IMG/VR virus record: IMGVR_UViG_3300043409_001689
Coordinates: 1 to 56,588 of that record
Length of the DNA stretch: 56,588 bases
From: a virus
Lineage: Duplodnaviria > Caudoviricetes
Reading direction: 5' to 3' (one strand)
The position numbers were made by a program, and so were the translations under genes. The notes beneath the pieces were generated by a model, which did not search any database, was not told the origin of the DNA, and worked only from the letters and a program-made list of their open reading frames with translations. Shown here in pieces: positions 1,605 to 53,510 of this stretch (position 1 is the first letter of the stretch; every line of letters starts with the position of its first letter).

Positions 1605-1679
1605 TTTATGGAAGATTGTAAGCAGCCCCCGAGAAGGCTGCTTGGATTATAGAATTTTCGTTAATGGTTGCGAGTGCTT

Positions 1680-2213
1680 TTAAGCGGCTTTGACCTCTGC
1701 CATAAGTTCTTCTGTGGACCGCACGAAAGGCGCAGCAAGCTTTAGGCAAAGTTCTTGAAGCTGCTTGGTCTTTGAATAAGGAACGTCTGAAAGTTTGTGG
1801 ATAGGCTCAAAAGCCTTTTCCAAAGCCCAGCGGCTTTTAACCTCTTCGTGTTCCGCTATAAGCAAAGGGCAATACCCAACGCCTTTCTCACGGACTACTT
1901 CAAAGCCTTCTGACAAATGACGTTCATGCAAGGCTTCCCAATATGGTGCAAGCGTCTTTGAGTCGTTTCCGTCAGTCATTGCAAGGTAGTTGTCCTTTTC
2001 ATGGAGAATTGCGCCATTAGGCTTTAAATCGGGCATCATGCGCTCTGATGTTTTCTCCGCAGGGAAGAAGTCAAACTTTGCAAAGACCTCAGCTTTGTAG
2101 GCTTCTACGGTGGGTCTGATAGCTTGAACATAAGCCATTGAGACAAAGACCCCTTCCGCAGCCTTTACCATCTCTTCTGTAAGCCCAGCAGGGCGTTGGA
2201 TTGATTTTTTCAT
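1680..2213 (-). CDS. Hypothetical phage protein
   Basis: 177-aa ORF; motif variant TTAACGAAG directly before the ATG. Confidence 0.75.
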   Translation of the reverse strand: MKKSIQRPAGLTEEMVKAAEGVFVSMAYVQAIRPTVEAYKAEVFAKFDFFPAEKTSERMMPDLKPNGAILHEKDNYLAMTDGNDSKTLAPYWEALHERHLSEGFEVVREKGVGYCPLLIAEHEEVKSRWALEKAFEPIHKLSDVPYSKTKQLQELCLKLAAPFVRSTEELMAEVKAA

Positions 2214-2239
2214 CTTCGTTAAAATTTATTAGATTGTTA

Positions 2240-2554
2240 TTACACGAATTTTATGAAATTATAATCTTTACCAAGTGCTTGCAAAGACTTATTTACATCG
2301 TCTTTGAGCATATATGACATTTTCCATCGTTTTGCCAAAACGATAAAAGTTTGTTCTCCGTTATCGTTGTGATAACCAAAGGCGTTTTTTGTGTTTAGCA
2401 GCCATTCTACTTGAATCCCATGACTTATGAGATTCTTTGCCCAGTCTTGCAAGTGCTTTTGTTTAAATTTTAAGAAGTTTTCAGAATTACCAATTTCTTT
2501 TTCTTTTACTACTCCCCATCTCGTTTCAGTGATTGTAAATATAGCGTATTCCAT
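2240..2554 (-). CDS. Hypothetical protein
   Basis: 104-aa ORF in the cluster. Confidence 0.65.
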   Translation of the reverse strand: MEYAIFTITETRWGVVKEKEIGNSENFLKFKQKHLQDWAKNLISHGIQVEWLLNTKNAFGYHNDNGEQTFIVLAKRWKMSYMLKDDVNKSLQALGKDYNFIKFV

Positions 2555-2566
2555 AAGTTAAATTTA

Positions 2567-2926
2567 TTAGATTGTTACTAAAATATTGATAGGCTTGACA
2601 GCCTTAATGCTTTTCAAATTACTTCTAAGGAACGAACGAAGTTTCCCAGCTTCCACATCAAAGTAGCAAAAGACTTTGTCAGACGCCTTGCGCTCGGTCA
2701 GCTTTACGTAGTCCTTTGCAAGCGTTCCCGAAGCTTTGCGGAGCGTGACTCCGTCTTTTTTCAAGTACTCAAAGTCCACCAAGAAGTCTTCCATGAGTTC
2801 CGCAAGCTTGTTGCACTTCCAAGCAGCCCATGAAAGCTTTTGGGCTTCTCCGAAAGAAACACCGTGCTTTTTAGCCCAAAGGTGGGCAAAGGAGACTATC
2901 AAGGAGCGAGGATAGGAGATTTTCAT
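2567..2926 (-). CDS. SH3-like beta-barrel (WYL_2/DUF2693-like) protein
   Basis: F.Y.KKDG..R.A.GTL...YFDVE....RSF pattern typical of the family. Confidence 0.7.
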   Translation of the reverse strand: MKISYPRSLIVSFAHLWAKKHGVSFGEAQKLSWAAWKCNKLAELMEDFLVDFEYLKKDGVTLRKASGTLAKDYVKLTERKASDKVFCYFDVEAGKLRSFLRSNLKSIKAVKPINILVTI

Positions 2927-2962
2927 TTTCGTTAAATTCTTATGATTGCTTTAATAATGATA

Positions 2963-2994
2963 CAAATGTATTAATGTTATTTCATACTTCCAAA
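2963..2994 (-). promoter_or_regulatory. Bacteroidota primary-sigma promoter
   Basis: -7 TACATTTG (2963-2970) and -33 TTTG (2991-2994), 20-nt spacer. Confidence 0.75.
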
Positions 2995-3494
2995 TTTATT
3001 TTATATATTCTTAAAAATAAATTCTTAGTAGATGCAAATGGTTTTTAGTGGTTAGCGGTGCAAATGGTTTTGAACGGTTGCAAGTGCCTTTTAATGGTAT
3101 CGGGTGCAACCTATAAAGAACGGTTTAAATCGTCCTAAAGCCTTTTAAAGTCTATTCAATACCCTATCAATACCCATGCCTTTACCCATCACTTTCAAAA
3201 GCCTAAACACGCTTTAAGGCGTTCTTTTGAAAGTCCTATATAAGTACATAGGAAGTACAAAAGGTAGGCTTAAAACGCTTTAAAAAGGCTTGTTCCTTTC
3301 TTTATAGTTCCTTATTCTTTCAATGGTACGGTATAGGTACACAAGTGAATCAATAAGGCATTTTAAAGCGATATAAGGAACTATTTTAGAAAGTCTATCA
3401 ATAGGCTTTATGAAAATCTTTTTGGCTTATATCAAAGGTTGATTTTTAGTCTTCCATAGGATTAAAAGGCTGTTATTGTTGATGGATACCACAA

Positions 3495-3531
3495 AATAAA
3501 AAAGTACCCATGTTTTACACATGGGTACTTT
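3495..3531 (-). terminator. Intrinsic terminator
   Basis: 13-bp stem aaagtacccatgt/acatgggtacttt followed by a U-run on the minus strand. Confidence 0.65.
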
Positions 3532-3636
3532 AAGCAAAAACAGCACTAAAAACGATTCTTTAATCGTCTTTCTATAAATAGAGAAAGCGGTGCATCTATA
3601 AAAGATACACCGCTCATATATAACCATTTACAAACA

Positions 3637-4368
3637 CTACACAGTTGCACTCATACCCAACATTCTTAACATCATTTCACGCATCTCGGGCGTTAATTCT
3701 ACTTTAGACGTGTCAATGCTTTCTAAAGTCTTAAGAACTTCTCCCGCTTTCTTAACGCTTTGGGCAGCGATTTTTGCTTCCATTTCAGCCTTCCGCTCCG
3801 CATTGCTTTTTGCAAGTTCTACAAAGTTGTTTGCACGTGTGAACGTGTCACTAATCAGCTTTTCCGCTTTTGCGGTGGCTTCGCTTATGATGCGCTCCGC
3901 ATCAATGGCAGCTTTTTCGTTCATCTCATTAGCTTTTTCCGTGGCTTGTTCAACCGTTAAAGTAGTACGTGAAACAATCGTTTCAGAATTGTATGTAGGT
4001 CTTTCTGCACCGTTGAAATAACGGAACTCCTTTGAAATACGGTCTTTCAAGAACTCTGGAAAGTCTTTTGTAGCTTTTCTCACCCATTCCTCTTTTGGAA
4101 TTTCTCTCGTTTGGTAGTCTTCAAAAATAGCCTTTAGGCGAGACTTTTGAGTGACTTTTTCAGCACGCTCCGTTGCGCTTTCAATAGGTTGCAAAGGTGT
4201 TTCAGCCGTTGGTAAGTCTTCTGAATAGTCAACCGTCAAATCTTGGTTAGCTTCGATAATTGTCTCAATGTCCTCACCCATTAAAAGGCGGTCAGCGAAT
4301 GACACCTTTGAAGTTTTAGAGGCGTTGTTTGTTGTTGTTGTTGCTGGAGATACGATAGAATTTTTCAT
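3637..4368 (-). CDS. Hypothetical coiled-coil protein
   Basis: 243-aa ORF with own promoter and leader motif; AERIISEATAKAEKLI helical repeats. Confidence 0.75.
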   Translation of the reverse strand: MKNSIVSPATTTTNNASKTSKVSFADRLLMGEDIETIIEANQDLTVDYSEDLPTAETPLQPIESATERAEKVTQKSRLKAIFEDYQTREIPKEEWVRKATKDFPEFLKDRISKEFRYFNGAERPTYNSETIVSRTTLTVEQATEKANEMNEKAAIDAERIISEATAKAEKLISDTFTRANNFVELAKSNAERKAEMEAKIAAQSVKKAGEVLKTLESIDTSKVELTPEMREMMLRMLGMSATV

Positions 4369-4434
4369 TTTCGTTAAAATTTAATTGATTGTTAAAAGAT
4401 TTTTTAAATGTAGCGTTAACCGCTTTTGATGATA

Positions 4435-4466
4435 CAAAGATATGCTATTTAAATGACACTACCAAA
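4435..4466 (-). promoter_or_regulatory. Bacteroidota primary-sigma promoter
   Basis: -7 TATCTTTG and -33 TTTG, 20-nt spacer. Confidence 0.7.
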
Positions 4467-4545
4467 TTTATTAATACAAATGTATAATTATTTTTAATCT
4501 TTTTTTTAATGGGTTATTTCTTTCAATAACCCATTATCTATATAG

Positions 4546-4562
4546 TGCAATAACTATGCCAA
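4546..4562 (-). promoter_or_regulatory. Putative sigma-54 (-24/-12) promoter
   Basis: TTGGCATAGTTATTGCA fits TGGCA..GG-N10-GC. Confidence 0.55.
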
Positions 4563-4580
4563 AAAGATATAATTGTATTA

Positions 4581-4970: not shown

Positions 4971-5016
4971 AGTAGAATTTTCGTTAAGCGTTCCAACATT
5001 GGAACATCTATATACT

Positions 5017-5033
5017 TGCATAAACTATGCCAA
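5017..5033 (-). promoter_or_regulatory. Putative sigma-54 (-24/-12) promoter
   Basis: TTGGCATAGTTTATGCA, GG-N10-GC; near-copy of 4546-4562. Confidence 0.55.
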
Positions 5034-5535
5034 TTAATAATATAAGTGTATAAGAATTAAATAAAGTTTATGGCATCAATACACACCCCTTGAAAGTCTT
5101 TCAAAAGTCTATCAAAGATTTATAACAGCCTACCAAAGACTCATAAAGACTACCAAAGAACCGTGATAGCTGACTTGTAAGGACTAAAGTCTTTAGGTGT
5201 GTTTAAGAGGTTGGACGGGCTGCGAAGCCCCCCCTAATCGACTTTTGAGGGTGGGGGGAGGGCTGCCACCTTTCATGTACTCCGCCAATTCTTTCAAGAA
5301 TCATTATATTAAGAAAGTCTTTATGTGTCTTTCAGCTTGCTTGCAACCTCCCCGCCTTTTTTTCAGACTTCTTTCAGCCTTCCGACATCTCTTGCAAGGC
5401 TTCGGGAACACTCTCAATGCGCTCTCAATAAGACCCCTACCCCCTATGACTATTTGAAGCTTTTGAAAAATTATTATATATTTTTTAGGGGATTTTGTAT
5501 ATTTGTGGAATCATTTAACGAAAATCAAAAGTCCT

Positions 5536-5760: not shown

Positions 5761-5766
5761 AAGAAA

Positions 5767-5937
5767 GTGTTTCCAAAGCCTATCAACGATGCTCAAATGG
5801 TGCTTGAATTGACAAGCGGTCTTTTAGGACGCTTTAAGACTGGAATCCTTTTTAAATTTTTGAATTACCTAAAATGCTATAACAATGATAATTCGGAAAG
5901 GATTATTGAAAGGCTTTCTAAACTCATTGCTTTATAG
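5767..5937 (+). CDS. Small hypothetical protein (56 aa, not in ORF track)
   Basis: GTG-start ORF filling the gap between neighbours. Confidence 0.35.
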   Translation: MFPKPINDAQMVLELTSGLLGRFKTGILFKFLNYLKCYNNDNSERIIERLSKLIAL

Positions 5938-5976
5938 TTTACCGATTTGGTTTATTTTGTATTTAATTTTCAAAAG

Positions 5977-6784: not shown

Positions 6785-6818
6785 AGAAATTGTAAGAGTG
6801 GCTCTTGGGTAGGCTTTT

Positions 6819-10989: not shown

Positions 10990-11017
10990 TTCTTTTTTGT
11001 TTAATTATTTAATAATA

Positions 11018-11048
11018 CAAATGTATAATTTTTTATTGAAAAAACAAA
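11018..11048 (-). promoter_or_regulatory. Bacteroidota primary-sigma promoter
   Basis: TACATTTG with -33 TTTG. Confidence 0.7.
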
Positions 11049-11110
11049 ATATTTTGTAAAATAAATTTAATGGCTATATTGGATAAATACCTTAAAGTAT
11101 TTATGTAAAT

Positions 11111-13956: not shown

Positions 13957-14015
13957 TTAACCCTTGTGGGGGCTTTTAATATTATTGTTTAACGAAAATT
14001 CTAAAATTTATAAAG

Positions 14016-19797: not shown

Positions 19798-19973
19798 TCT
19801 CCCCTATGACGGTTAATGAAGATGGGGGCGTTATCGTAAATGATGATGGAGAAACCGTTTTGTAGTTAAAATCTTATCTAAAATTTGATTTTTATAGAAT
19901 AAGTGGGTAGTTTAACTACTCACTTATTTCTATTTTAAGTAAATATCTTTTAATAACGAAAATTTCAAAATCC

Positions 19974-22750: not shown

Positions 22751-22787
22751 GGAACTATTATTAATTAACGAAAATTCAAAAGTAACA

Positions 22788-25705: not shown

Positions 25706-25758
25706 GACTTAACGAAAATTCTAATCATTATTCAAAAATCATTTCAAAAGTAACAAAG

Positions 25759-34155: not shown

Positions 34156-34277
34156 AATTATTGTTGATTTTAATTTCAATACAAATATATAACAATTTTT
34201 CAAGACCGCAAACTTTTTTTGAAAGAATTATAATTATTTTTGGCATATTGTAGAAATCAAAATTAACATTTAATTAA

Positions 34278-35918
34278 ATGGCGAACAGGCTTCTATCATA
34301 CATAACAAGAACCTACGAACAAGGGATTGATACTATTTTAGGTTATATGACGGTCAATTTACCCGAAATGACTGACCATACTTTGGGAAATCCTTTCGTG
34401 AGAATGGTTCATGTATGGCTTGCCATGTTCGAGCAGCACCAATATTATATTGATGATGCAGCCAATGAAAATTTCTTGCACCTCGCAAGACGCTATAAAT
34501 CCTTAGTGGCTCATGCAAGGGCTAATGACTACCGCATAAGACTTTCTTCACCCGCTACGGTTGACCTTACGTTTGAACTCAATCAAGCAGCAACAAGCGA
34601 AATAACAATTCCTATCAATACCCAAGTGTTGTCTGAAAGTGGTAATGTCTCTTTTTGGACTACGGAAGTAGGCACTATTGCAATAGGTCAAAGAAGCGTC
34701 TTGGTGAAAGCGAAGCAAGAAAACCCTTTGACTATTTCAAAGACTATTAATTGTATTGGGGGTAAATGGCAGCAGTACGCCTTAGAGTCCAATGTAAGCG
34801 AAGGAACAGTACAAGTGATTGACCAAACCAATGAATACTACCTTGTAAAAGATACTTTGCTTTATTCAAAGGCTGAAAAAGTCTTTGTTCCCAATGTTCA
34901 TTATGACGGAACACCTATTGTTCAGTTTGGTGATGGGGTTACTGGTGCCAGCCCGAACGCTTCGGAAGTCCTAACGGTGCAATGGAAAGAAACTTTAGGC
35001 TTTAATGGAAACTTGAAAGCCTACACGTTAACTCGCCTTGCGACTTCTTTAAGCCTTCCAAATGGACTCACTATAAAGGTCTATAATGTGAATCAAGCAA
35101 GCGGGGGCAAAGGAATTGACAATGTGGCAGACATTCGCAAAGGCATTGAGAGCCAAAAGCGGACTTTAGGAACTGCTATAATGAAACAAGACTTTCAGAT
35201 GCTTGCCGAAGGAGTAGCGGGAGTGTTGAAAGCGGGGGTGAAAAGCGTATGCGGAAAACCTTTAGAAGTTTATATAATTCCTGTTGGTGGGGGGATAGCT
35301 TCAAACACTTTGAAGGATTCGGTTTATAGTCTCTTGGAAGCTAAAAGGGTTTTTGGTAGGAAGTTGGAAGTTAAGCCTACGGGTGTATTAAGACTTCTCT
35401 TAAGCATCAATGTAAGATTAAATGGTTCTTATGTAGAAACGGCTAAGAGGGAAGAGATTACGGCAGCTTTGATAGATTTCCTAAGCTATCAAAAGCAAGA
35501 AATAGGGGGAACTTTGGCTATGTCCGACATCTATCAAATCGTAGAAGGAATACAAGGGGTAGGAAACTCTGATATTATAGATATGCGGGTAAAGCCTTAT
35601 GCAAGACCAATATTGGGTAATGAAACACCTTTGGCTTGGACGGTGGACTTGAAGAAAGGCTCGGAGACTACCCATGAGTGGCTTATAGGCTTTGTGACTT
35701 CTACAAAGTTTAATGTATTCAAGAACAATGAACTTGTAAAGACTGCCTTAATAGGCGAACTTATAGACACTCCCGAAGTTTCCTTTACGCTTTTGGGGGC
35801 TTACACCGCAGGGCAAAAGTGGTCTTTCGTGACTTACAAGGGGTTTGGCTCGGTGAATACCAATGAAATGTCAATCATCATATCGGACTCCTCCGATATT
35901 AATATCAAATTCATTTGA
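34278..35918 (+). CDS. Baseplate J/gp6-like wedge protein
   Basis: E.FL..ARR..S, FGDG..G..P, A.GG, DF..LA..V.GV.KA motifs. Confidence 0.9.
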   Translation: MANRLLSYITRTYEQGIDTILGYMTVNLPEMTDHTLGNPFVRMVHVWLAMFEQHQYYIDDAANENFLHLARRYKSLVAHARANDYRIRLSSPATVDLTFELNQAATSEITIPINTQVLSESGNVSFWTTEVGTIAIGQRSVLVKAKQENPLTISKTINCIGGKWQQYALESNVSEGTVQVIDQTNEYYLVKDTLLYSKAEKVFVPNVHYDGTPIVQFGDGVTGASPNASEVLTVQWKETLGFNGNLKAYTLTRLATSLSLPNGLTIKVYNVNQASGGKGIDNVADIRKGIESQKRTLGTAIMKQDFQMLAEGVAGVLKAGVKSVCGKPLEVYIIPVGGGIASNTLKDSVYSLLEAKRVFGRKLEVKPTGVLRLLLSINVRLNGSYVETAKREEITAALIDFLSYQKQEIGGTLAMSDIYQIVEGIQGVGNSDIIDMRVKPYARPILGNETPLAWTVDLKKGSETTHEWLIGFVTSTKFNVFKNNELVKTALIGELIDTPEVSFTLLGAYTAGQKWSFVTYKGFGSVNTNEMSIIISDSSDINIKFI

Positions 35919-36514
35919 TGCCTATTCAAGATACCATATTCTCATTGTTCGGCTCGGGGGAAAAGCGGACGGACACTTACAGAGATTCCAACGGCAAAGG
36001 TGTCTTGGAACGCTTCAATGAGTGTATTGGAAAAGATATGGACTTTTTGACCGTGGAACTTGAAGGTATGGCGGTCAAGTTGAATGACATTTATCAAGCC
36101 GACTTTCACACGCTTTCAGTCATTTGCGAAGGCTTAGGGCTTCCTTACCAAGAACTCTACAAAGGTTCGGACATAGACGTTCTAAGACGTATTGCAAAGT
36201 ATTCTAAAGGCATCATTGAGAATAGGTCAAATAAGGACGGGGTGAAACTAATCACCTACTTAATACTGCCAATGGTGACGGTAGAAGTAATTGAAGACTT
36301 CCCTATTTCGGGCTTTGATTCTTCTATTACTTTAGATGATTCCAAGAGGGTTTTTGATACTTCGGGAGGGCTTGCTTGCGTTGGGCTATCCTTTGAATTT
36401 AATAGTCCAATAGTTCTTAGTGAAGATGAAAAAGAAACGATGCGCCTTATTGCTTCTTTCAATACCCCCATTGACTGCCTTTCGGTGGTCAAATTAAACG
36501 GTACGATAATTTAA
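35918..36514 (+). CDS. Baseplate wedge (tail I/gp7-like)
   Basis: Follows the J-like gene; size. Confidence 0.65.
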   Translation: MPIQDTIFSLFGSGEKRTDTYRDSNGKGVLERFNECIGKDMDFLTVELEGMAVKLNDIYQADFHTLSVICEGLGLPYQELYKGSDIDVLRRIAKYSKGIIENRSNKDGVKLITYLILPMVTVEVIEDFPISGFDSSITLDDSKRVFDTSGGLACVGLSFEFNSPIVLSEDEKETMRLIASFNTPIDCLSVVKLNGTII

Positions 36515-36530
36515 CGAAAATTTTAAGATA

Positions 36531-38316: not shown

Positions 38317-38372
38317 GCAGCAGCACACTACAAGTAAAAATATTTTAACGAAAATTTGAAGTTAGTAATCAC

Positions 38373-38780: not shown

Positions 38781-38817
38781 CTTCGGCAAAGTTTTAACGA
38801 AAATTATTGTTTTTATC

Positions 38818-38853
38818 AAAGGACTTGTGCAAATTTAGCATAAGTCCTTTTCT
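38818..38853 (+). terminator. Intrinsic terminator
   Basis: aaaggacttgtgc/gcataagtccttttct. Confidence 0.65.
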
Positions 38854-39463: not shown

Positions 39464-40149
39464 ATGTAGGAGTGCCGCTTCTCTTGCTACTCTTAGGTAT
39501 CTTCTTTTTCTTCACTAAAGACTTTCCGACGACTTCCATAGGTGGATTAAATAGCGTAGGGGGGTTTTTATCGGACGTGGACAGCTTAAAGAATGCTGCG
39601 GACTATTGGCAAGCGGAAGCTTCTAAAAGCGACACGGTAATTATCAAAGTGCCTACATACGTCTATGTTGACCGTCCTATCTCAATTCCTATCCAAAAGA
39701 ATAAAGTCTTTCCAAAAGAAATAGACTTGAATGACTTTGACTTAGAAGACGTTTCAAAAGGCGATGAAGTGGTGGCAAGCGTTCCAGTAAAGACTACTGA
39801 AAAAGATTATGGAAGCTTCTTAGAACTTCCCTATGACTTTACCTTGAAGAATGAAGGAGTGTCTTTCGATGGACTTATTACGGCTGATTCTTTTACTATT
39901 AAGAATCTTCTTATCGCTTCGCCTTATGAAGTAATGCCTATTGTAAGTATTAAAGGAGACTATGAAAAAAGAAGCGTAGTGTTTAGGTATTCAAGCCCAT
40001 ATTTGAAAAACCTCAACATCTCCTACACGGAAAAAGATAGGCTAAGTGACAAGGGCTTAAAGAAAGTTAAAAGAAAAGCAGCTTTAAAAGGCACATTGAT
40101 AGGTGCTGGATTAGGGGCTTTGACTTATTTCATCATTCAAAGAAAGTAA
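39439..40149 (+). CDS. Putative spanin-like membrane protein
   Basis: N- and C-terminal hydrophobic segments, DTVII repeat, directly before the endolysin. Confidence 0.5.
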   Translation: MQKLRKLVNVGVPLLLLLLGIFFFFTKDFPTTSIGGLNSVGGFLSDVDSLKNAADYWQAEASKSDTVIIKVPTYVYVDRPISIPIQKNKVFPKEIDLNDFDLEDVSKGDEVVASVPVKTTEKDYGSFLELPYDFTLKNEGVSFDGLITADSFTIKNLLIASPYEVMPIVSIKGDYEKRSVVFRYSSPYLKNLNISYTEKDRLSDKGLKKVKRKAALKGTLIGAGLGALTYFIIQRK

Positions 40150-40872: not shown

Positions 40873-40904
40873 ATTATTTTTTTTAACGAAAATTCTAAAA
40901 ATCT

Positions 40905-41490: not shown

Positions 41491-41519
41491 CAGTCAATTA
41501 ACGAAAATTCAATAATCCA

Positions 41520-42014
41520 ATGAAGGGAATGAGAATCCAAGACTTGCCGATGCGCGCGCAAGTCCAAATACAACAGCAATTACATAATGAGAAAAATATA
41601 CAATCTTCCAAAACAAAGTCATTAACGAAAGTTCTACAAGATGAAAAGGAAAACGATAGAAGTTTCTTTTTCCTTAGAGCCTGTCAAGCAGAAGGCTTAT
41701 TTCCCATAAAAGAATTTAAGTTTGCAAAAGAAGCCACTAAAAGATTGTGGCGTTCTGATTATTATTTTGAACAAGAGGGGATTCGGGTAGCGGTGGAACA
41801 AGAAGGTGGAACAATGACGAATGGTCGCCACAATAGAGGAAAAGGCTATGAAGAAGACATGAAGAAATACAACTTCTATCAAAGTCACGGAATAATCCTT
41901 CTGAGATTTACGACAAAACAAATATCGTTTTTTCCTGTTCAGATAGCGAAAATTGTTAAATCTGCGTTACTAAGTGAAGATTTTACGTCTTTACTATTGG
42001 AATTATACAAATAG
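41520..42014 (+). CDS. PD-(D/E)XK (Vsr/DUF559-like) endonuclease
   Basis: EFKF...RLWR.DY...VAVE.EGG...GRH.R..GY..D..KYN. Confidence 0.8.
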   Translation: MKGMRIQDLPMRAQVQIQQQLHNEKNIQSSKTKSLTKVLQDEKENDRSFFFLRACQAEGLFPIKEFKFAKEATKRLWRSDYYFEQEGIRVAVEQEGGTMTNGRHNRGKGYEEDMKKYNFYQSHGIILLRFTTKQISFFPVQIAKIVKSALLSEDFTSLLLELYK

Positions 42015-42026
42015 TTTTTATATTTG
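41997..42026 (+). promoter_or_regulatory. Bacteroidota primary-sigma promoter
   Basis: TTG-19nt-TATATTTG. Confidence 0.65.
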
Positions 42027-42029
42027 CAT

Positions 42030-42177
42030 AATATTGATATATGTCAATTATAATAGCTTTCCTAAGATTAAGCTATTTCTAAGATAAAAACTTCTCTTTC
42101 TCTCTCCTTTACTGGATAGGATTTAGAATTTTCGTTAAAATTTTGCTGAAGCCTATCTAACAAGATAGGCTTTTTTT
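42030..42177 (+). ncRNA. Putative small RNA 2, antisense to the genome-wide leader motif
   Basis: Promoter, ORF-free hairpins, CU tract, AGAATTTTCGTTAA, terminator. Confidence 0.55.
42149..42177 (+). terminator. Intrinsic terminator
   Basis: aagcctatct-aaca-agataggc-ttttttt. Confidence 0.8.
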
Positions 42178-42215
42178 ATGTAGGTTATGGATGAACAAAA
42201 TAACATTTAAGTAAA

Positions 42216-43881: not shown

Positions 43882-43923
43882 TAAAGCGGAACGGACTTGT
43901 GGAGACTGACAAATGGATATAAG

Positions 43924-43954
43924 AAAAGCCCTTGAATCACTTCAAGGGCTTTTT
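43924..43954. terminator. Bidirectional terminator between the genome arms
   Basis: aaaagcccttgaa/ttcaagggcttttt. Confidence 0.85.
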
Positions 43955-43960
43955 GCTTTT

Positions 43961-45026: not shown

Positions 45027-45123
45027 GGATTTTTAGAATTTTCGTTAGAACTAAAACAAACATACACCCAAGAATTTTTAGGCTCAAGGGTGCTGTCATT
45101 ATTTAACGCTTTTTAACACCAAA

Positions 45124-46068: not shown

Positions 46069-46141
46069 TTTGATAACTTTTTACGCTCTTTTGATACCTT
46101 CTTAGGCTTTTTTGAGCAATTTAGAAATTTCGTTAATATCG

Positions 46142-46216
46142 TTGGCGTGATTGGAGTCGAACCAATACTTTCCCCATTGTAAAAATTGAGTGTGTTATCC
46201 ATTACACTACACGCCT
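46142..46216 (-). tRNA. tRNA-like element with aberrant anticodon arm (identity undetermined)
   Basis: GGCGTG/CACGCC acceptor, GTGT-AATGGATA-ACAC D arm, ATTGG-TTCGACT-CCAAT T arm. Confidence 0.7.
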
Positions 46217-46243: not shown

Positions 46244-46405
46244 TTACGCAGCCTTTTCCAAAGCTACTTTAACTCTTTTAGAAGACTTCAAGGCTTTCTT
46301 CTTTGATTCTTTAGGCTTATTGAAGCCACGAGTGTAATTTACAACATCTTCGTAAGAAGGGGCTTGGTAGCCTTCTGATTCATAAGGATTTTCAAAATTC
46401 GGCAT
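46244..46405 (-). CDS. 53-aa basic peptide (not in ORF track)
   Basis: MPNFENPYES...KVALEKAA, preceded by a promoter (46451-46482) and the leader motif. Confidence 0.65.
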   Translation of the reverse strand: MPNFENPYESEGYQAPSYEDVVNYTRGFNKPKESKKKALKSSKRVKVALEKAA

Positions 46406-46469
46406 GATTCAAGGATTTTTGATGAATTTTCGTTAACCAATTAAGTGATACAAATGTATAAAAAAATAT

Positions 46470-46919
46470 CTAAAATTCCAAACTTTTGTTATATTTTTTT
46501 TCACTATCTACAAAGATTTTTTCAATATCCTTAAATAACCTTGAAACGCCTTCATTTATGACCTTTAGCACGTCTTTAGGCACGTCTTTTTCTTCGATGT
46601 ACTTACTATTCTTAGAAGCAAAAAGCACCGTAGAAGTTTTTTGATAAAGCTTTGCTTCGACGATTAATACAGACTTTACGGAAAAGAACGTAGAATCTTT
46701 GTCGGTAAGAAAACCATAAGCGGTGTAGCTGGTTCCGTAATTCTTACGAATTGCATCAATGATGCAATAGATAAGCTGTATTTCGCTATCCGTGTACTTT
46801 TGTCGTCCTCCAACGACGTTGAAGTGTCGGGAAGGTCTTTCAGTAGGGAAGCGGCTTCTGATAAATCTTGGGTCAGCCAATAGGCTTTCAACGGCTTGGC
46901 GTTGGGCTTGGATATTCAT
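46470..46919 (-). CDS. Hypothetical protein
   Basis: Leader motif directly upstream. Confidence 0.7.
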   Translation of the reverse strand: MNIQAQRQAVESLLADPRFIRSRFPTERPSRHFNVVGGRQKYTDSEIQLIYCIIDAIRKNYGTSYTAYGFLTDKDSTFFSVKSVLIVEAKLYQKTSTVLFASKNSKYIEEKDVPKDVLKVINEGVSRLFKDIEKIFVDSEKKYNKSLEF

Positions 46920-46958
46920 AATTAGAATTTTCGTTAAAGTAGTTGAAACAAATAATTT

Positions 46959-47594: not shown

Positions 47595-47614
47595 AGTAAA
47601 TACTATTGAGTTTT

Positions 47615-48325
47615 TTATTTAGACATTAATTCTTGTATATACTTAGGATAAACCCCTCTTCTTATACAAGAAATTGAATTTTTTGAACAATTGTACATTG
47701 ACGCTAATTGTGAAATAGTAAACTTGTAACTACAAATAGTCTCTATGTCTGAAATTGACAACTTTTTGTTTTTTGTTGTAAACTTTTCATCATTAGGATT
47801 ATCTGTTTTAAGAACAGAAGCCCATTGCTTGCCATTTCTAATATAGAAATACGTTTGATATGCTCCACCGAACATTTTTGAAAACTCTTGGTCCGTATAG
47901 TTTTCAAGATTATTTTTTATCCAAATTATATCACTTACACTAAGAAAAGAACTTGCTCGTTGATATCCCTTTAAAATATTTTCTCTTCCTTTTTCTTTTT
48001 TGTCAAGCATATTGTCTTTATGCGTACCTAATGACAAATGATTTACATTTATACAGCTTGCGTTATCGCAAGAATGCATGACACATAAACCTTTTTCTAT
48101 CTTTCCGATAAACTCTTGATAAACCTTCCTATGTGCAAAATGATGCTGTAATTTATTGTTTTCGGAAGTTGAAAACATAATATACCCATCGCTTCTTGGC
48201 TTGTTTGATATTACTAAATGACAGTTTGAAATTGGGTCTATATTACAAATAACAGGTTTTTTTTTGTTTATTATGTAATAATAGGCTTTATCTTCTTTTT
48301 CTACGTAGCTACTTTTAGCTGACAT
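47615..48325 (-). CDS. HNH endonuclease
   Basis: AHR..Y, VMHSCDN..C.N..HL..GT..DN; C-terminal HTH-like repeats. Confidence 0.9.
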   Translation of the reverse strand: MSAKSSYVEKEDKAYYYIINKKKPVICNIDPISNCHLVISNKPRSDGYIMFSTSENNKLQHHFAHRKVYQEFIGKIEKGLCVMHSCDNASCINVNHLSLGTHKDNMLDKKEKGRENILKGYQRASSFLSVSDIIWIKNNLENYTDQEFSKMFGGAYQTYFYIRNGKQWASVLKTDNPNDEKFTTKNKKLSISDIETICSYKFTISQLASMYNCSKNSISCIRRGVYPKYIQELMSK

Positions 48326-48386
48326 TTTAAATTAGAATTTTCGTTAATAAATTAAGTTAATTAGTGTAGTTCATTTAGTATGTTTT

Positions 48387-49055: not shown

Positions 49056-49146
49056 GGCAAATATTTGTCTTTGTAGTCTTGGGAAGTATCTTTCTTTTCA
49101 AGAAAACCTCCCAAGACGATGATGATTAGAAAGGCTATTAGTAGTT

Positions 49147-49776: not shown

Positions 49777-49822
49777 AGTTAAAGGATTTTTGATTAATTT
49801 TCGTTAATTTTTAATAATAATA

Positions 49823-49853
49823 CAAATGTATATATTTAATTCGATACTTCAAA
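49823..49853 (-). promoter_or_regulatory. Bacteroidota primary-sigma promoter
   Basis: TACATTTG with -33 TTTG. Confidence 0.7.
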
Positions 49854-49859
49854 ATATAT

Positions 49860-50072
49860 TTATATTATTTTTTGTAAAAGATTAAAATTAATTAATCTTT
49901 CAATATCAATTAACGACATTTGAAAGACTACCCCTTGTTTTGTCTTAGCCTTGACAAATTCTAAGGTATAGCCTTCTACCTTGTTTTTTGCCGTTTGGGG
50001 GTTGAATTTATTAATTTCAACTATTGACCCGTCCGAAACAAATAAAAATCGCTTGCCTAATAAAACCGCCAT
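49860..50072 (-). CDS. Hypothetical protein
   Basis: 70-aa ORF. Confidence 0.55.
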   Translation of the reverse strand: MAVLLGKRFLFVSDGSIVEINKFNPQTAKNKVEGYTLEFVKAKTKQGVVFQMSLIDIERLINFNLLQKII

Positions 50073-50155
50073 TAATCGCTATTTTAAAGAAATAAAAAAC
50101 GCCATACTTTTTTGCATGGCGTTCCGAAAAAAAATTATAATCCCATGAACACTAA

Positions 50156-50791
50156 TTACATATTTGCTCTTGCTCTCTTTTCAAGAGCCTTATTGAGCTT
50201 ATCAAAGTCCACTTCTTTCCCTCCATTGACTGAAATAGTAGTAAAGCTATGATTTTTCTTAGGCTCTGAAAGTCCTAATGATTCGTCGGTGTAACTTCCT
50301 AAGTCTTCATCGCCTTCTTCAAAAGACATGGCAAGCTGAGACTTTGAAGGGGCTTTGAAAAGGCTTAACCAGCACCCTTCAACTTCTTTTTCCACTTCAA
50401 GAAATTTCATGTAGAAGCGGTTGCGATTCTCGTGCATCTCCAAGACTTTCTCTTGGGCTTCGGATTCGTCGCCAGTGCGCTCAACAGGAGTATTCTTGAA
50501 GTCAAAAGCGTCTTGATGTTTCATAACCATAAACTGATTATTTATGAAAATATTTACTTCAAATGAGCATTTCTTGAAGTTGTCTTTGTCAAGACTTACG
50601 GAGACTGACCGAAGACCTACGTTGAAGCTGGGGAACATATCATAAACCACTTCATTGAGTTCTTGGATTAGTCCGAATAGGTCATTGGGGATTTGCTTAG
50701 TCTTGCAAACTTGGGAGTTTTTATCAACGTCTTCGTTAGTCGTTTCAAACGTCCAAACGCCATTGGCGTTTTGTAGCTTTTTAAGAATCAT
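50156..50791 (-). CDS. Hypothetical protein
   Basis: 211-aa ORF preceded by the leader motif. Confidence 0.72.
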   Translation of the reverse strand: MILKKLQNANGVWTFETTNEDVDKNSQVCKTKQIPNDLFGLIQELNEVVYDMFPSFNVGLRSVSVSLDKDNFKKCSFEVNIFINNQFMVMKHQDAFDFKNTPVERTGDESEAQEKVLEMHENRNRFYMKFLEVEKEVEGCWLSLFKAPSKSQLAMSFEEGDEDLGSYTDESLGLSEPKKNHSFTTISVNGGKEVDFDKLNKALEKRARANM

Positions 50792-50852
50792 GAGGATAGA
50801 ATTTTCGTTAATTGAATACTTTTGTTAGATGCTGCAAATTTATATAAATATT

Positions 50853-51617
50853 TTATATTTTTCTAAAAGAATCTCCTTCAAATAAAATTATATTAAACAT
50901 TTCATTGAAGCGGTCTAATACCCTTTCGTCAAAATGAACTTTCAGTCCGTTATTGTCAAGGTTAGAACTTACAATAGTGATTTCTCCAAAGTTCACGAAC
51001 TTATTGTAGCGATTCCTAAAAATCACTTCCATTGGTCTTATCTCGTTTCCGTAAGACTTTACAAAAGGCTCTGAAAAACCTACATCATCAAAAGCCCTAT
51101 TCTTGGTATAGTACGGAGTCAAATTAAAGTCTTTGTTAAATTGTACTTCATCAAAAATTGTCGGGGCTTCATTAAAAAGAAAGTGCTTATTTAATTTCAA
51201 AGTTAAAGCTGTCTTTTGTAAGGCTTTCAAGATAGCCGTCTTACCAGTTCCTTTAGGTCCATAAAGGAATAATCCTTTCCTTAAAGATATAGGCTTTAAA
51301 TCAATCATACCCCAAGGGGTTTCCGCTTCGGAAGAATCTATAAGCCATTGAATTAGTTTTGGTAATACCTCTTTCAAGAAAGAAGTCATAACAACATCGG
51401 GCTTGGTCTTTTGAACTTCCGCTTTGTAGTAGTTCCAAAAGACTTCCCGAGCAGTTGCATAATCCACGGTTATAGCTTCCGCGGGATTTTTTAGACTTTC
51501 AATGTACTTTATCGAACTTTCGGAAGGCTGAAAGTCTGATTCAACTAATTTCCGTTTTCTTTCGTAAGGGTTATTCCCTTGTATTGAGCGTAGATGCTCT
51601 AATGAAACATTATCCAT
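50853..51617 (-). CDS. DnaC/IstB-like ATPase (helicase loader)
   Basis: GPKGTGKT, FDDVG, SSNL, R..DR..EMF; follows the initiator gene. Confidence 0.82.
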   Translation of the reverse strand: MDNVSLEHLRSIQGNNPYERKRKLVESDFQPSESSIKYIESLKNPAEAITVDYATAREVFWNYYKAEVQKTKPDVVMTSFLKEVLPKLIQWLIDSSEAETPWGMIDLKPISLRKGLFLYGPKGTGKTAILKALQKTALTLKLNKHFLFNEAPTIFDEVQFNKDFNLTPYYTKNRAFDDVGFSEPFVKSYGNEIRPMEVIFRNRYNKFVNFGEITIVSSNLDNNGLKVHFDERVLDRFNEMFNIILFEGDSFRKI

Positions 51618-51642
51618 GATGCTTAGAATTTTCGTTAATGAA

Positions 51643-52794
51643 TTAAGTGAATGATGTAAACGCCACAGTCTTAGCCGTGTAAACAGGCATAGCCGAAGGT
51701 CTTGAACCGTTAGTGTGCTTTTTTACTAAAATAATAATTGCGCTAAACTTTGAAAATAACATACTTGGAGCGAAGTTGTCTTTCATCCATTTGTCTTTCA
51801 AGGCACTCGCCATGAATGTAGAAAAAGTTTCTTTAACCTTTTCGTCTGAAACGGTTTCGTACTTAGTATAAAGTAAATTAGTCAACTCTTCCCGAACTTT
51901 CTTAATCGCAATTAATTCTTTCCCTTGCCACAAAAAGGCATCCCCATCGGAAAGAGTCTTGTAAGTATTTGAAAAGGCGTCAATGAAGTGCTGGTGCAAG
52001 TGCTTTGACCTATCCCCTACTTTTAGGGCTTTTATAGCTTCGTCCGTTTTGGCTTCTTTAGGCTCAATTACTTCAATAGGCTTAGTTTGACTTTCAAACG
52101 AAGGCGCGGGGCGCAATGGCGTGTCTTGCTCGCTTTCAGTTTGTAAGTCAACTAAGTCATTCAAAGGATTTTCTTTTTCATCGGGGGCTTCGACGATAGG
52201 CGAAGCAAGAGACTTATTGTTATTAGACTTAGGTAATTGGTATAAGACTCCTCGGTCAATATTGACCGTGTCAATCACGTTTGACACGGTCAAATTGTTC
52301 CAAGTAACTTGGTCATTCGTGTCCGTGTCATTTTCATCTAACTTGGTCATTCGTGTCCGTGTCCTGCAAGGTGATTGAATTGCTTGACGTTTAATCTTCA
52401 ATGCTTCTTTAGCTTCCTTAGAATCTTTATCAAATTCAATGAGTAAATCCGCTTTACTTGTAAAGCAATAATAAGACTTCTTGAGTGATTGAGAATTTGG
52501 GTGTTTTTCTACAAGTCCTTGCTTTATAAGTTCTTCAATTATTCTTCTTACTTTTTTTGACAGAGCTTCTGTTGTTATGTCTTCTGAAAAAAGAATAGGC
52601 AAGTTTTCAAGAATAAGGCTATGTGAAAACCAAAAATATAGCTTTTCGTTTTCCTTAAATGATTCTTTTTGAAAAGATGTGACTCCGATTTTGGTTTGCA
52701 TCATATTCATTACACACGCAGCTTCTAAGGAAACTTTAATTCCATGCGCTGAATAAGCAGCTTGGTTAATGTATATATTAGCTAAAATAGGCAT
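51643..52794 (-). CDS. Replication initiator (lambda O-like architecture)
   Basis: N-terminal wHTH-like region, internal repeats, upstream of the DnaC-like gene. Confidence 0.7.
   Translation of the reverse strand: MPILANIYINQAAYSAHGIKVSLEAACVMNMMQTKIGVTSFQKESFKENEKLYFWFSHSLILENLPILFSEDITTEALSKKVRRIIEELIKQGLVEKHPNSQSLKKSYYCFTSKADLLIEFDKDSKEAKEALKIKRQAIQSPCRTRTRMTKLDENDTDTNDQVTWNNLTVSNVIDTVNIDRGVLYQLPKSNNNKSLASPIVEAPDEKENPLNDLVDLQTESEQDTPLRPAPSFESQTKPIEVIEPKEAKTDEAIKALKVGDRSKHLHQHFIDAFSNTYKTLSDGDAFLWQGKELIAIKKVREELTNLLYTKYETVSDEKVKETFSTFMASALKDKWMKDNFAPSMLFSKFSAIIILVKKHTNGSRPSAMPVYTAKTVAFTSFT
52254..52363. repeat. Putative replication origin iterons
   Basis: 13-bp inverted repeat 52262-52293 and 25-bp direct repeat at 52305/52339 sharing CCGTGTC. 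Confidence 0.65.
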
Positions 52795-52800
52795 TGTTTA

Positions 52801-53436
52801 TTATTTAAAATTTTCGTTAAAATATTTTTTAGTATAATTTAAGTCTTCAATACTTAATTCAAACCACTCACCTCCTACTCTTTTATTGTCAAAAAAGGCG
52901 TGTAGTTCTTTTTCGTCTTTTAATGTTCCATTAAATTGACTAACTAATTGTATTGTTGGATTTGAAGTCAAATGGCTCTTTAATCGTGAATCCATATTAG
53001 TAGTAAAACCAATTTTATGTAAACCATTGGATTTAAGCAAGTAGATTACTCCGCTTGTATATTCAATAGGTTTTATTTTAACTTTCTCGTTTGTTTTAAG
53101 CGTTTTAATGTCATTAAATGAATAACAAGACTTTCCAATTTGTTGAGATTTTGGATAAAAGTTAATAAGACCTACTTTGTTCAACTCAATCATAAGCCTA
53201 CTTATTCTTTTTGCTATACTTTGTTTTGTTATGTCTTTTCTAAAAATAATTGGTATTTTTTTAAATAACATATTGTAATTGATGTGATAGTATGCAACTC
53301 CTTCATGGTCTATTTTTTCAGTAGAAGATAATTTAGATATTTTTAAAGCTGAATCATAGACTATTATAGCTTCAATAGGCAAACCTAAATTTTTGCTACT
53401 CCAAAAGTCTTGGTCAATAGTTACTTTTTTTGACAT
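52801..53436 (-). CDS. Initiator-like N-domain fused to a T5orf172/GIY-YIG-like domain
   Basis: Start reassigned to 53436 after the leader motif; IYL...KIGFT....RL...E..LH..F...R..GEWF. Confidence 0.78.
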   Translation of the reverse strand: MSKKVTIDQDFWSSKNLGLPIEAIIVYDSALKISKLSSTEKIDHEGVAYYHINYNMLFKKIPIIFRKDITKQSIAKRISRLMIELNKVGLINFYPKSQQIGKSCYSFNDIKTLKTNEKVKIKPIEYTSGVIYLLKSNGLHKIGFTTNMDSRLKSHLTSNPTIQLVSQFNGTLKDEKELHAFFDNKRVGGEWFELSIEDLNYTKKYFNENFK

Positions 53437-53510
53437 AGGATTGATTTTAAAATTTTCGTTAAATAAATAATTTGTAAAGATATGTGAGTTTTCCATGTGT
53501 TTGCATAGGT

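Follow-up and report, generated by a model that had tools for sequence, protein, structure and literature searches.

In an uncultured freshwater phage, roughly one gene in four has a 12-base motif, TTAACGAAAATT, just ahead of its start codon. The motif is tied to the start codon, occurs once per cistron, and is absent where genes are tightly coupled. Tentatively, and short of calling it probable, we read it as a start-associated leader, i.e., a linear, unstructured, phage-specific piece of mRNA that would set or regulate initiation of the next cistron. The likely hosts are Bacteroidota, in which translation starts without Shine-Dalgarno pairing; if true, the reading would mean virus-specific translation control in hosts without ordinary ribosome-binding sites. 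The window (the whole record of 56,588 nucleotides) is ~66% complete, so about one-third of the genome may be absent.

Gene calls came from a heuristic of our own instead of a trained gene finder (90.0% of the record coding by these calls), and Pfam/PHROGs scans covered 50 proteins of the record. Counted at ≤1 mismatch on both strands of the whole record, the motif had 26 matches (18 exact); 100 dinucleotide-preserving shuffles averaged 1.69 and never exceeded 4. It forms a single conserved block of ~20 bits, with an invariant core, TAACG, that A/T-richness alone does not explain. The consensus grows 3′ to TTAACGAAAATT-CTAA (12 to 16 bases with this extension) and often on to AAATCC-ATG; aligned copies had no conserved block further upstream, and the 18 copies identical over 12 nt have flanks at background divergence on both sides. 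All 25 positions given in a preliminary description are real: all ten on the plus strand and 14 of the fifteen on the minus strand match exactly or with 1 mismatch, and its "variant" near 2215 is the 2-mismatch TTAACGAAGATG at 2211-2222. Absent from it were copies at 41622 (plus strand, 1 mismatch, inside ORF 41520-42014) and 42127-42138 (minus strand, exact, preceding no gene). The observation as a whole is confirmed.

Phage specificity, claimed earlier, held up: the motif was not enriched in 401 sampled Bacteroidota genomes (≤9 copies in any one genome and, in most, no excess over the reversed control), and no IMG/VR stretch had more than one copy among the matches listed. No consensus RNA fold was found (25 aligned copies without a consensus pair), Rfam gave no match (cmscan of the whole window, E up to 10), and no complementarity to 16S rRNA was found.

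As the preliminary description had proposed, copies are sense oriented, intergenic, and start proximal, and are present in replication/early, structural, and lysis-region modules (Table 1). Twenty-four of the 26 are not fully within a called CDS (binomial p about 2.5e-22, given 90.0% coding), and 23 are linked to the ATG of an ORF (≥47 aa) on the same strand, at positions from 3 nt inside it to 56 nt upstream. Spacing is ≤19 nt for 20 of the 26 and 8 to 11 nt for 10 of the 23 ATG-linked copies. Where the upstream gap exceeds 60 nt (n = 15), 13 copies sit ≤19 nt from the ATG and not elsewhere in the gap; the motif precedes 19 of 36 genes with an upstream gap of >25 nt and 0 of 21 with a gap of ≤5 nt. 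Consecutive genes each have a copy (53451, 52809, 51627, and 50800), and copies are squeezed over an upstream stop codon (36511) or coding end (52809); three copies (two with 1 mismatch and one with 2) have the start codon itself as their last three bases. The placement exceptions are 38794 (next gene 107 nt away, with a terminator-like hairpin between), 41622, and 42127. Starts previously corrected to 4970, 5536, and 53436 are each consistent with a motif 5 to 19 nt upstream, as is the small gene proposed at 46405, which also has a full promoter.

Table 1. Motif copies and features of the 42.03- to 42.18-kb region (distances in nucleotides)
Feature	Position	Strand	Context
Exact motif	1653..1664	-	48 upstream of ATG 1604; hairpin between
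2-mismatch variant TTAACGAAGATG	2211..2222	-	Last three bases are ATG of gene 1680-2213
TTAACGAAAATG	2924..2935	-	Last three bases are ATG of WYL_2 gene 2567-2926; full promoter ends 27 upstream
TTAACGAAAATG	4366..4377	-	Last three bases are ATG of gene 3637-4368; full promoter ends 57 upstream
Exact motif	4976..4987	-	5 upstream of ATG 4970
1-mismatch copy	5515..5526	+	9 upstream of ATG 5536; -7 box ends 9 upstream
Exact motif	13989..14000	+	15 upstream of ATG 14016 (head module)
1-mismatch copy	19953..19964	+	9 upstream of ATG 19974; after terminator-like hairpin 19897-19929
Exact motif	22765..22776	+	11 upstream of ATG 22788
Exact motif	25709..25720	+	3 past upstream stop; 38 upstream of ATG 25759
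Exact motif	36511..36522	+	Its TAA is stop of gene 35918-36514; 8 upstream of ATG 36531
Exact motif	38345..38356	+	16 upstream of ATG 38373
Exact sense copy	38794..38805	+	No adjoining gene start; 12 upstream of terminator-like hairpin 38818-38850
Exact motif	40883..40894	+	10 upstream of ATG 40905
Exact motif	41498..41509	+	10 upstream of ATG 41520; full promoter ends 7 upstream
1-mismatch copy	41622..41633	+	Within ORF 41520-42014, then only a 22-codon out-of-frame ORF; probably not functional
Promoter-like site ATTG-N19-TATATTTG	41996..42027	+	11/12 host-type consensus positions; upstream of non-coding stretch
Candidate anti-leader RNA, ~150 nt	42032..42182	+	Ends inferred; leader complement at about 42113-42143
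Exact copy	42127..42138	-	Reverse to both neighbor genes; no ORF downstream; plus strand is anti-leader core
Intrinsic-terminator-like hairpin (11 pairs) and T-run	42148..42180	+	9 past anti-motif
1-mismatch copy	45037..45048	-	10 upstream of ATG 45026; -7 box ends 8 upstream
1-mismatch copy	46125..46136	-	4 past tRNA; 56 upstream of ATG 46068
Exact motif	46425..46436	-	19 upstream of ATG 46405 (53-aa ORF); full promoter ends 14 upstream
Exact motif	46926..46937	-	6 upstream of ATG 46919
Exact motif	48336..48347	-	10 upstream of ATG 48325 (HNH_3 gene)
Exact motif	49796..49807	-	19 upstream of ATG 49776; full promoter ends 15 upstream
Exact motif	50800..50811	-	8 upstream of ATG 50791; -7 box ends 23 upstream
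Exact motif	51627..51638	-	4 past upstream stop; 9 upstream of ATG 51617
Exact motif	52809..52820	-	In last codons of gene 52801-53436; 14 upstream of ATG 52794
Exact motif	53451..53462	-	14 upstream of ATG 53436 (T5orf172/MUG113 gene)

Host-type (Bacteroidota) promoters were defined as TTTG-N17-22-TAnnTTTG, with TAnnTTTG as the -7 box; 15 full promoters were found (3.5 expected). An exact box ends 7 to 44 nt upstream of 8 of the 26 sites, where random positions gave 1.05 on average, in keeping with the earlier statement that copies lie downstream of host promoters. At these sites, the motif is transcribed leader. Because host-type promoters lie upstream and some copies contain the start codon, the motif cannot be the sole or a temporal-class promoter, in agreement with the earlier argument against a temporal promoter. 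Adenine frequencies at -3, -6, -12, and -13 are 67%, 67%, 71%, and 75% in 24 motif-led starts and 50%, 40%, 50%, and 70% in 30 other spaced starts, with the A-run of the motif on -12/-13. In Flavobacterium johnsoniae, initiation is reportedly enhanced by adenines at these four positions (accessible parts of PMC6847099 and PMC13000457).

As a start-associated leader, the motif would lie within 5′ untranslated or intercistronic mRNA of a host lineage without Shine-Dalgarno pairing and would act at the RNA level, its invariant TAACG core presumably recognized in a sequence-specific way, perhaps by a phage factor or by a complementary RNA made from 42.03-42.18 kb. Such an RNA would base-pair across the leader, blocking or modulating initiation. 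Strong expression does not need the motif, as it is missing from the major capsid gene (14525) and from other genes presumed to be well expressed. The preliminary interpretation survives in part (sense, intergenic, start-proximal, phage-specific, and not the sole promoter); of the binders it suggested, the WYL_2 protein does exist (gene 2567-2926), with nothing found connecting it to the motif, and no ASCH-like protein was found among the 50 scanned. Counting against the leader reading are the absent RNA structure and 16S complementarity and a spacing (-3 to 56 nt) that suggests a looser arrangement than a ribosome-contact element would give. High invariance in ~26 oriented copies is equally the hallmark of sites that act as DNA, among them stoperators and phage promoters. 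Also counting against a leader is a palindromic motif of distant relatives (~28 to 30 copies, in places directly upstream of -7 boxes), which has more the look of a DNA site bound by protein.

The main DNA-level rival is modeled on Cluster A operators/stoperators: orientation-dependent sites for a phage regulator, bound as a monomer on asymmetric 12 to 16 bp and blocking initiation or elongation. We consider this unlikely, though deserving of serious weight. Stoperators of the L5 gp71 type are >20 asymmetric 13-mers genome-wide, transcription oriented, and found at promoters and in short intergenic regions (PMC9283540, accessible text), a pattern shared by the ~26 asymmetric copies here, all but one of which run along transcription, promoter proximal or in short intergenic regions, in both arms. 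Three copies start 7 to 9 nt past a -7 box, about where transcription is expected to start, and the high invariance without RNA fold and the relatives' palindrome also fit. Stoperators, however, are immunity-repressor DNA sites of temperate phages, without a start-codon link in the accessible text of PMC9283540, whereas copies here keep close to ATGs, one per cistron, even in large gaps, and a roadblock needs no one-per-cistron copies pushed into coding ends or start codons. Searches of the ~66% complete record found no integrase (PF00589) or HTH_3, and Pfam/PHROGs named no repressor among 50 proteins, with about one-third of the genome possibly absent. A phage-specific promoter or initiator, used by an RNA polymerase that the phage modifies or encodes, with transcripts starting within or just past the motif and very short leaders, is improbable. 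T4 late and T7-type promoters likewise present one short conserved block before many genes, as does the ~20-bit block here; plus-strand late genes have few host-type promoters, and between copy 19953 and the terminator-like hairpin before it there is only a -7 box matching at 7 of 8 positions. Unlike those promoters, the motif has a host-type -7 box before it at eight sites, at distances that vary from 7 to 44 nt; three copies contain the start codon, and early, structural, and lysis-region genes are preceded alike, while copy 38794 would fire directly into a terminator. The incomplete record had no match to sigma-70 region 2 or 4_2, and general Pfam/PHROGs scans of its 50 proteins named no RNA polymerase.

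We give still less credence to a passive footprint, in which a promoter-and-leader cassette was copied with accessory genes or spread by short-repeat recombination and the core has no recognition role. A 41-nt leader plus first codons recurs at 88% identity (2199-2239 and 4354-4394), the promoter-plus-leader pair 2950-3023 and 49810-49883 is similar beyond the motif, and many of the genes behind a motif copy are small or accessory, e.g., HNH_3 and T5orf172; weak contig joints also adjoin copies, with sides of only 21 nt that make them unreliable. Placement is nonetheless strictly one per cistron, and exact 12-nt cores in 18 copies with flanks at background require selection or very recent spread. 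Least credible is an RNA processing site at which a host or phage endoribonuclease would cut polycistronic transcripts, freeing cistrons with defined 5′ ends. The motif is single stranded, A/U-rich, intercistronic, and one per cistron, and one copy lies 4 nt past a tRNA, but Pfam/PHROGs found no endoribonuclease among the 50 proteins (only RNase_T-type exonuclease, HNH_3, and T5orf172 domains).

For the start-associated leader, the closest analogue appears to be the start-associated sequence (SAS) of Cluster K mycobacteriophages (Pope et al. 2011, PMC3203893). As described in the accessible part of that report, SAS is also a short asymmetric repeat (13 bp; here, 12 to 16) in 11 to 19 copies (here, 26), nearly all in one orientation, directly upstream of start codons and with a strong preference for ATG, sometimes holding the stop codon of the upstream gene and essentially absent from host genomes. 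Its function is likewise still untested, according to the accessible text of PMC11373665 and PMC12699233. It differs in its sequence, GGGATAGGAGCCC, with a Shine-Dalgarno core 3 to 9 nt from the start (here, no rRNA complementarity and spacing of -3 to 56 nt), and, as far as the available descriptions go, in occurring only in the non-structural arm of temperate actinobacteriophages, whereas the motif here spans all modules in a phage of Shine-Dalgarno-independent Bacteroidota; no ESAS-like inverted repeat is present here. The Kozak-like A-rich initiation regions of Bacteroidia (Baez et al. 2019, PMC6847099; PMC13000457) share an unstructured leader without Shine-Dalgarno and adenine enrichment at -3, -6, -12, and -13, but the accessible text describes them as a loose preference for certain bases instead of an invariant 12-mer, with no TAACG counterpart. 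DUF805/DUF805b leader RNAs (Rfam; Bacteroidota and their phages) are, in contrast, structured pseudoknots, and neither matched in the window (cmscan, E up to 10).

New here is that the single reverse copy, 42127, may be part of a candidate antisense regulator RNA, which gives the earlier sRNA-target option a concrete candidate partner. The candidacy follows from a promoter-like site (compared by eye with the host-type family), a stretch with no ORF of >35 codons in any frame (42032..42182), a terminator-like hairpin, and the anti-motif. Contiguous complementarity of the stretch has a median of 15 nt (range, 9 to 19) against the 25 other copies and of 6 nt (maximum, 12) against non-motif leaders. 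The reverse copy may instead be no more than a leader left behind by a minus-strand gene since lost; directly past 42010, other strains are divergent. A single reverse SAS copy without a gene start likewise occurs in four K1 phages (PMC3203893, accessible part), and in the K1 phage Anaya, it lies in a 385-nt non-coding gap between two rightward genes.

The leader motif, a 12-nt start-associated sequence (TTAACGAAAATT), occurs 26 times in the window at ≤1 mismatch, with 18 exact copies, whereas shuffled sequences averaged 1.69 and never exceeded 4; the observation itself is graded solid. All results derive from one uncultured, incomplete genome, with the coding fraction and gene positions taken from heuristic gene calls (78 genes). 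Twenty-five copies run along local transcription and one runs in reverse. The 25 places listed in the preliminary description are all real (one, at 2211-2222, carries two mismatches), and the list lacked two copies, one at 41622 (one mismatch, inside an ORF) and the exact, reverse copy. The conserved block spans 12 nt; a less strongly conserved CTAA follows it, and the similarity often runs on to AAATCC-ATG. No conservation was found at a -35-like distance from the motif. Equal frequency inside ORFs, which that description had named as evidence against a leader element, was not seen: 24 of 26 copies lie outside or only partly in genes in a record that is 90.0% coding (p about 2.5e-22).

Relative to the ATG of a same-strand ORF, 23 of 26 copies fall between 3 nt inside and 56 nt upstream, and 20 are within 19 nt; spacing was 8 to 11 nt for 10 of the 23 gene-associated copies (range, -3 to 56). 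Including the two-mismatch copy, 24 of 78 called genes are led by the motif. Where the upstream neighbour is on the same strand, the motif precedes 0 of 21 genes with a gap of ≤5 nt, 3 of 9 with a gap of 6 to 25 nt, and 19 of 36 with a gap of >25 nt; where the neighbour is on the opposite strand, it precedes 2 of 10. Gaps of >60 nt (n = 15) hold 13 copies within 19 nt of the ATG. At compact junctions the motif is squeezed in, with the TAA of copy 36511 serving as the stop codon of the upstream gene and copy 52809 lying within the final codons of its upstream gene, and successive genes can carry one copy each (53451, 52809, 51627, and 50800). The motif is missing from the major head gene and from further spaced genes, whose leaders are simply A/T rich; a few have decayed versions, upstream of 18460, 39248, and 54774. 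HNH_3 and T5orf172/MUG113 (GIY-YIG-like) genes are typical of free-standing homing endonucleases; one of each is encoded here.

Coordinates of features in the window
Feature	Position	Strand	Remark
Promoter family TTTGGAA...TATACATTTGTAT	2955-3000, 4427-4472, 11010-11055, 34174-34219, 46443-46488, 49815-49860, 56275-56320	minus	
Partial Rfam abiF RNA motif match	5776-5799	plus	22/24 aligned positions identical; ends in the ATG of a small ORF
Small ORF after abiF match	5797-5937		
Sense copy lacking a gene start	38794	plus	12 nt before a terminator-like hairpin
Terminator-like hairpin	38818-38850		13 pairs
Promoter-like site ATTG-N19-TATATTTG	41996-42027	plus	11/12 consensus positions, by eye against the phage promoter family
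Reverse copy of the motif	42127-42138	minus	sole copy reverse to its surroundings
Strong intrinsic terminator, then T-run	42148-42173	plus	predicted; closes the gap
tRNA	46141-46216	minus	ARAGORN call "tRNA-Stop"; anticodon TTA (reads UAA)
HNH_3 gene	47615-48325	minus	led by an exact copy
T5orf172/MUG113 (GIY-YIG-like) gene	52801-53436	minus	led by an exact copy
C/G-rich runs	56521-56575		right record end; run of about 24 C, then G-rich runs

The record (56,588 bases; G+C content, 39%) was classed as linear with an estimated completeness of 66%. It encodes a portal, head protease, major head protein, tape-measure protein, and helicase, together with an endolysin, an RNase_T-type exonuclease, and HNH_3, T5orf172/MUG113, and WYL_2 proteins. 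The runs listed as containing the phage are all DNA runs, from freshwater metagenomes. Portal relatives are few, the nearest at 90, 67, and 59% identity and the remainder at 40% or less. Relatives in genome collections sit in Cyclobacteriaceae, Cytophagales, and Raineyaceae MAGs, and the record has 15 full Bacteroidota-type promoters (TTTG-N17-22-TAnnTTTG) against 3.5 expected, with no enrichment of sigma-70-type matches; the host is therefore likely a member of Bacteroidota, probably Cytophagales. The genome is not recoded: TAA is the commonest stop (56/78 called genes), and reading it as a residue only fuses adjacent genes. The identity of the tRNA with a UAA-reading anticodon is uncertain, as its anticodon arm poorly fits the Rfam alignment. 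The abiF match falls below the gathering score (24.9 versus 37 bits; E = 3.9). The C/G-rich runs at the right end, a source of spurious weak Rfam hits, are probably an assembly-end artefact.

An exact TAnnTTTG box, the -7 element of the host-type promoter, ends 7 to 44 nt upstream of 8 of 26 copies (random positions: mean, 1.05; maximum, 7; 2,000 trials), which upholds the earlier claim that the motif lies downstream of host promoters. Full promoters precede five copies, ending 7, 14, 15, 27, and 57 nt before the motif. These are members of a promoter family (seven or eight near-identical sites of early type) that drives minus-strand early and island genes, and the leader motif follows four of the seven tabulated members. 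Because the box-to-motif distance varies, the motif does not belong to the promoter architecture; judged from this arrangement, it is a transcribed leader at sites with an upstream host-type box. Genes of the replication module, head, tail region, and lysis region are motif-led alike, as had been proposed, and from this occurrence across all modules we infer that the motif is neither the sole promoter nor a promoter of one temporal class.

In none of the sampled genomes does the motif qualify as a host leader motif. Among 401 Bacteroidota genomes, 186 had at least one copy, with a maximum of 9 exact copies per genome and counts mostly not above the reversed control, compared with 18 exact copies in the 56.6 kb of the phage; the three Cytophagales MAGs holding relatives had 0 to 4 exact copies. 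The possibility that the motif is just as common in the host thus found no support in these genomes, and the earlier reading of a phage-specific element in transcribed leaders holds in part: for leaders at boxed sites and in that the sampled Bacteroidota genomes are not enriched in the motif. Nothing similar was found in the rrn leaders examined, nor any resemblance to boxA, and pairing with rRNA as an enhancer was rejected, the duplex energy with two sampled Bacteroidota 16S rRNAs being weaker than that of shuffled motifs. IMG/VR pattern scans gave, among the matches listed, one chance match per stretch only, and no fetched locus had three or more copies. Loci retrieved with the portal alignment (35 viral, 44 metagenome, and 4 genome, all ≤41% identical) held a single 11-mer copy in two only. 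Queries with the major capsid protein and helicase found no close kin, and a literature search found nothing relevant on the motif string or on similar motifs in Bacteroidota phages.

Shine-Dalgarno sequences are ignored by Bacteroidota ribosomes. As set out in parts of two studies, the anti-Shine-Dalgarno sequence of Bacteroidia is sequestered, and initiation relies on low mRNA structure and adenines at -3, -6, -12, and -13 (PMC6847099, PMC13000457). Adenine frequencies at 24 motif-led starts versus 30 other spaced starts were 67% versus 50% at -3, 67% versus 40% at -6, 71% versus 50% at -12, and 75% versus 70% at -13; the AAAA run of the motif falls over -12/-13 at the modal spacing of 8 to 11 nt. 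Mean folding energy from -40 to +30 was -4.7 kcal/mol for motif-led starts versus -6.3 kcal/mol for others. From these adenine positions and the weaker folding, the motif region looks like a good Bacteroidia initiation region. This fit leaves the invariant TAACG core unexplained.

The closest analogue, by comparison of layout, is the start-associated sequences (SAS) of Cluster K mycobacteriophages. As described in part of PMC3203893, these are 13-bp asymmetric repeats, present in 11 to 19 copies in one orientation a few nucleotides before mostly ATG starts, sometimes with the upstream stop codon within the repeat, and absent from host genomes; their function was still undefined in the relevant passages of reports from 2024-2025 (PMC11373665, PMC12699233). 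The motif is likewise an asymmetric repeat of about 13 bp, present in more than 10 copies in nearly one orientation (25 versus 1), and rare in the Bacteroidota genomes sampled, which represent the likely host phylum. It differs in its looser spacing (7 of 23 gene-associated copies at the 3 to 9 nt typical of SAS), its presence in all modules, and its unrelated sequence, the SAS consensus being GGGATAGGAGCCC with the Shine-Dalgarno core AGGAG; on sequence grounds, the motif is not a member of the SAS family. The motif does not match the DUF805 and DUF805b RNAs: neither covariance model was hit in the Rfam scan, in which (all families, E up to 10) tRNA alone exceeded the threshold, and 25 aligned copies yielded 0 predicted consensus pairs.

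Other members of the phage group carry repeated intergenic words of their own. The nearly complete distant relative G404 (80.5 kb, 95% complete; loci L372-L376, with L126 as a part) has only the structural module in common with the window, of whose 78 proteins 22 match it at 1e-4. It bears about 28 to 30 copies of a different, palindromic 13-mer, TAAAGT(A/T)ACTTTA, located 0 to 87 nt upstream of ORFs and in places directly before -7 boxes; this word is also common to L156, L122, and L121. The syntenic orthologue of gene 36531 is motif-led in both phages. One G404 copy lies just before a terminator-like hairpin, and G404 also encodes a WYL_2 protein. Whole promoter cassettes are repeated in the portal relatives L195/L133 and L154/L118, with a conserved spacer or palindrome between the -33 and -7 elements; by sequence, these look like operator-bearing promoters. 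Phages of this group thus seem to make a habit of carrying an intergenic word in many copies, specific to the lineage, which points to a coevolving, phage-specified reader.

Our tentative preference, held at somewhat under an even chance, is that the motif acts in mRNA as a start-associated element that tunes or regulates initiation cistron by cistron. A DNA-level site for a regulator is a rather unlikely reading, kept alive by the palindromic form of the G404 13-mer, which is more suggestive of a DNA-binding protein. Stoperators, the repressor sites on DNA in temperate phages (described in part of PMC9283540), are similar in comprising more than 20 asymmetric, transcription-oriented sites in promoters and short intergenic spaces; however, the linear, 66%-complete record has no PF00589 (integrase) or PF01381 (HTH_3) match, although it may lack a third of the genome. 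More broadly, no candidate trans-acting protein (sigma factor, polymerase, repressor, or integrase) was named when 50 proteins were scanned with Pfam and PHROGs and the whole record was searched for four families, and the WYL_2 protein has no solved relative.

That the motif is an initiator-type promoter, with transcription starting within the conserved block, appears quite improbable. The start codon of a long ORF forms the last three bases of two one-mismatch copies and one two-mismatch copy, and transcription starting 3' of the motif would remove the start codon in these three; there is also no Sigma70_r2 or r4_2 match and no polymerase among the 50 proteins scanned, in a record that is about 66% complete. 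We give slightly less credence again to a passive footprint of cassettes: the joints 49152>49792 and 49812>53445 adjoin copies, but may be repeat alignment effects because their sides are only 21 nt. An RNA processing site is the least probable of these readings. If the preferred start-associated element in mRNA is real, this virus-specific motif on a quarter of the phage's genes would be a handle on how cistrons in long Bacteroidota-phage operons are selected and tuned. It could tag cistrons for recruitment or protection, act as a translational operator, or be targeted by a global antisense RNA. The SAS phenomenon would then reach beyond mycobacteriophages to an unrelated phage-host system, and, as the motif has no Shine-Dalgarno core, the start-associated property would be separable from mimicry of a ribosome-binding site. 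In practice, the motif is useful for placing gene starts and for calling small genes in phages of this lineage.

The reverse copy is flanked by two plus-strand genes. The 201-nt gap separating them has no ORF of >35 codons in any frame and begins right after the plus-strand promoter-like site. Read along the plus strand, the leader complement, with its CTAAATCC extension, stands 9 nt ahead of the terminator stem. In its predicted fold, the 151-nt stretch has two hairpins at the 5' end, then a weakly paired central part with the anti-motif, and finally the terminator (z-score, -2.57; 3 of 200 shuffles fold equally well). It is contiguously complementary to the 25 other copies over 9 to 19 nt (median, 15), compared with a median of 6 and a maximum of 12 for non-motif leaders, and mean duplex energies are -22.7 versus -13.5 kcal/mol, the duplexes often extending as far as the start codon; these values follow by construction, because the stretch contains a reverse copy. 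What is new here is the context of that copy and not the complementarity itself. The candidate unit combines features of multitarget, trans-acting antisense sRNAs: it is ORF poor and has a promoter-like site, an intrinsic terminator, and a complementary seed near start codons. Judging from this layout, the anti-motif is expected to be transcribed on the plus strand, with its own promoter driving it or as the 3'-terminal part of the 41520-42014 message. Against a function stands the possibility that the reverse copy is a leader left over from a minus-strand gene since lost, close to the point (42010) after which contigs of three runs diverge.

A common leader of 12 to 20 nt on about two dozen cistrons, with one small anti-leader RNA pairing with all of them, is an unlikely arrangement that these features nevertheless suggest. 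The candidate RNA (plus strand, about 42032-42182) would carry its seed just upstream of its own terminator and would pair with motif leaders up to the start codon. A single RNA would thereby switch a quarter of the genome in one step, at the level of translation or stability, in a host lacking Shine-Dalgarno control. Sense copy 38794, placed before another terminator, could serve as a decoy; its layout mirrors that of the anti-motif and terminator. In this reading, the lone reverse SAS seen in K1 mycobacteriophages would work in the same way. Such a copy, not tied to a gene start, is present once in each of four K1 phages (described in part of PMC3203893), and the four count as one observation because the phages are close kin. 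In Anaya, with 16 forward and 1 reverse SAS (≤2 mismatches, 40.8-kb stretch examined), the reverse SAS (39871-39883 of locus L377; record positions 59870-59882) lies in a 385-nt noncoding gap between the rightward genes gp96 and gp97. It is downstream of a terminator-like hairpin, and rightward transcription of the gap would express an anti-SAS.

At about 39411, 42010, and 43919-43957, the window is abandoned by contigs of three or four other freshwater runs, those of three runs diverging right after 42010, which suggests gene-cassette differences among strains in the lysis/accessory region. One variant contig (about 41992-42180) has 14 differences at 42029-42111 and none at 42112-42180 among the 40 differences listed of 1,324 in the population contig comparison. 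The listed indels flank copies 38345, 41498, and 49796 and leave the motif itself untouched.
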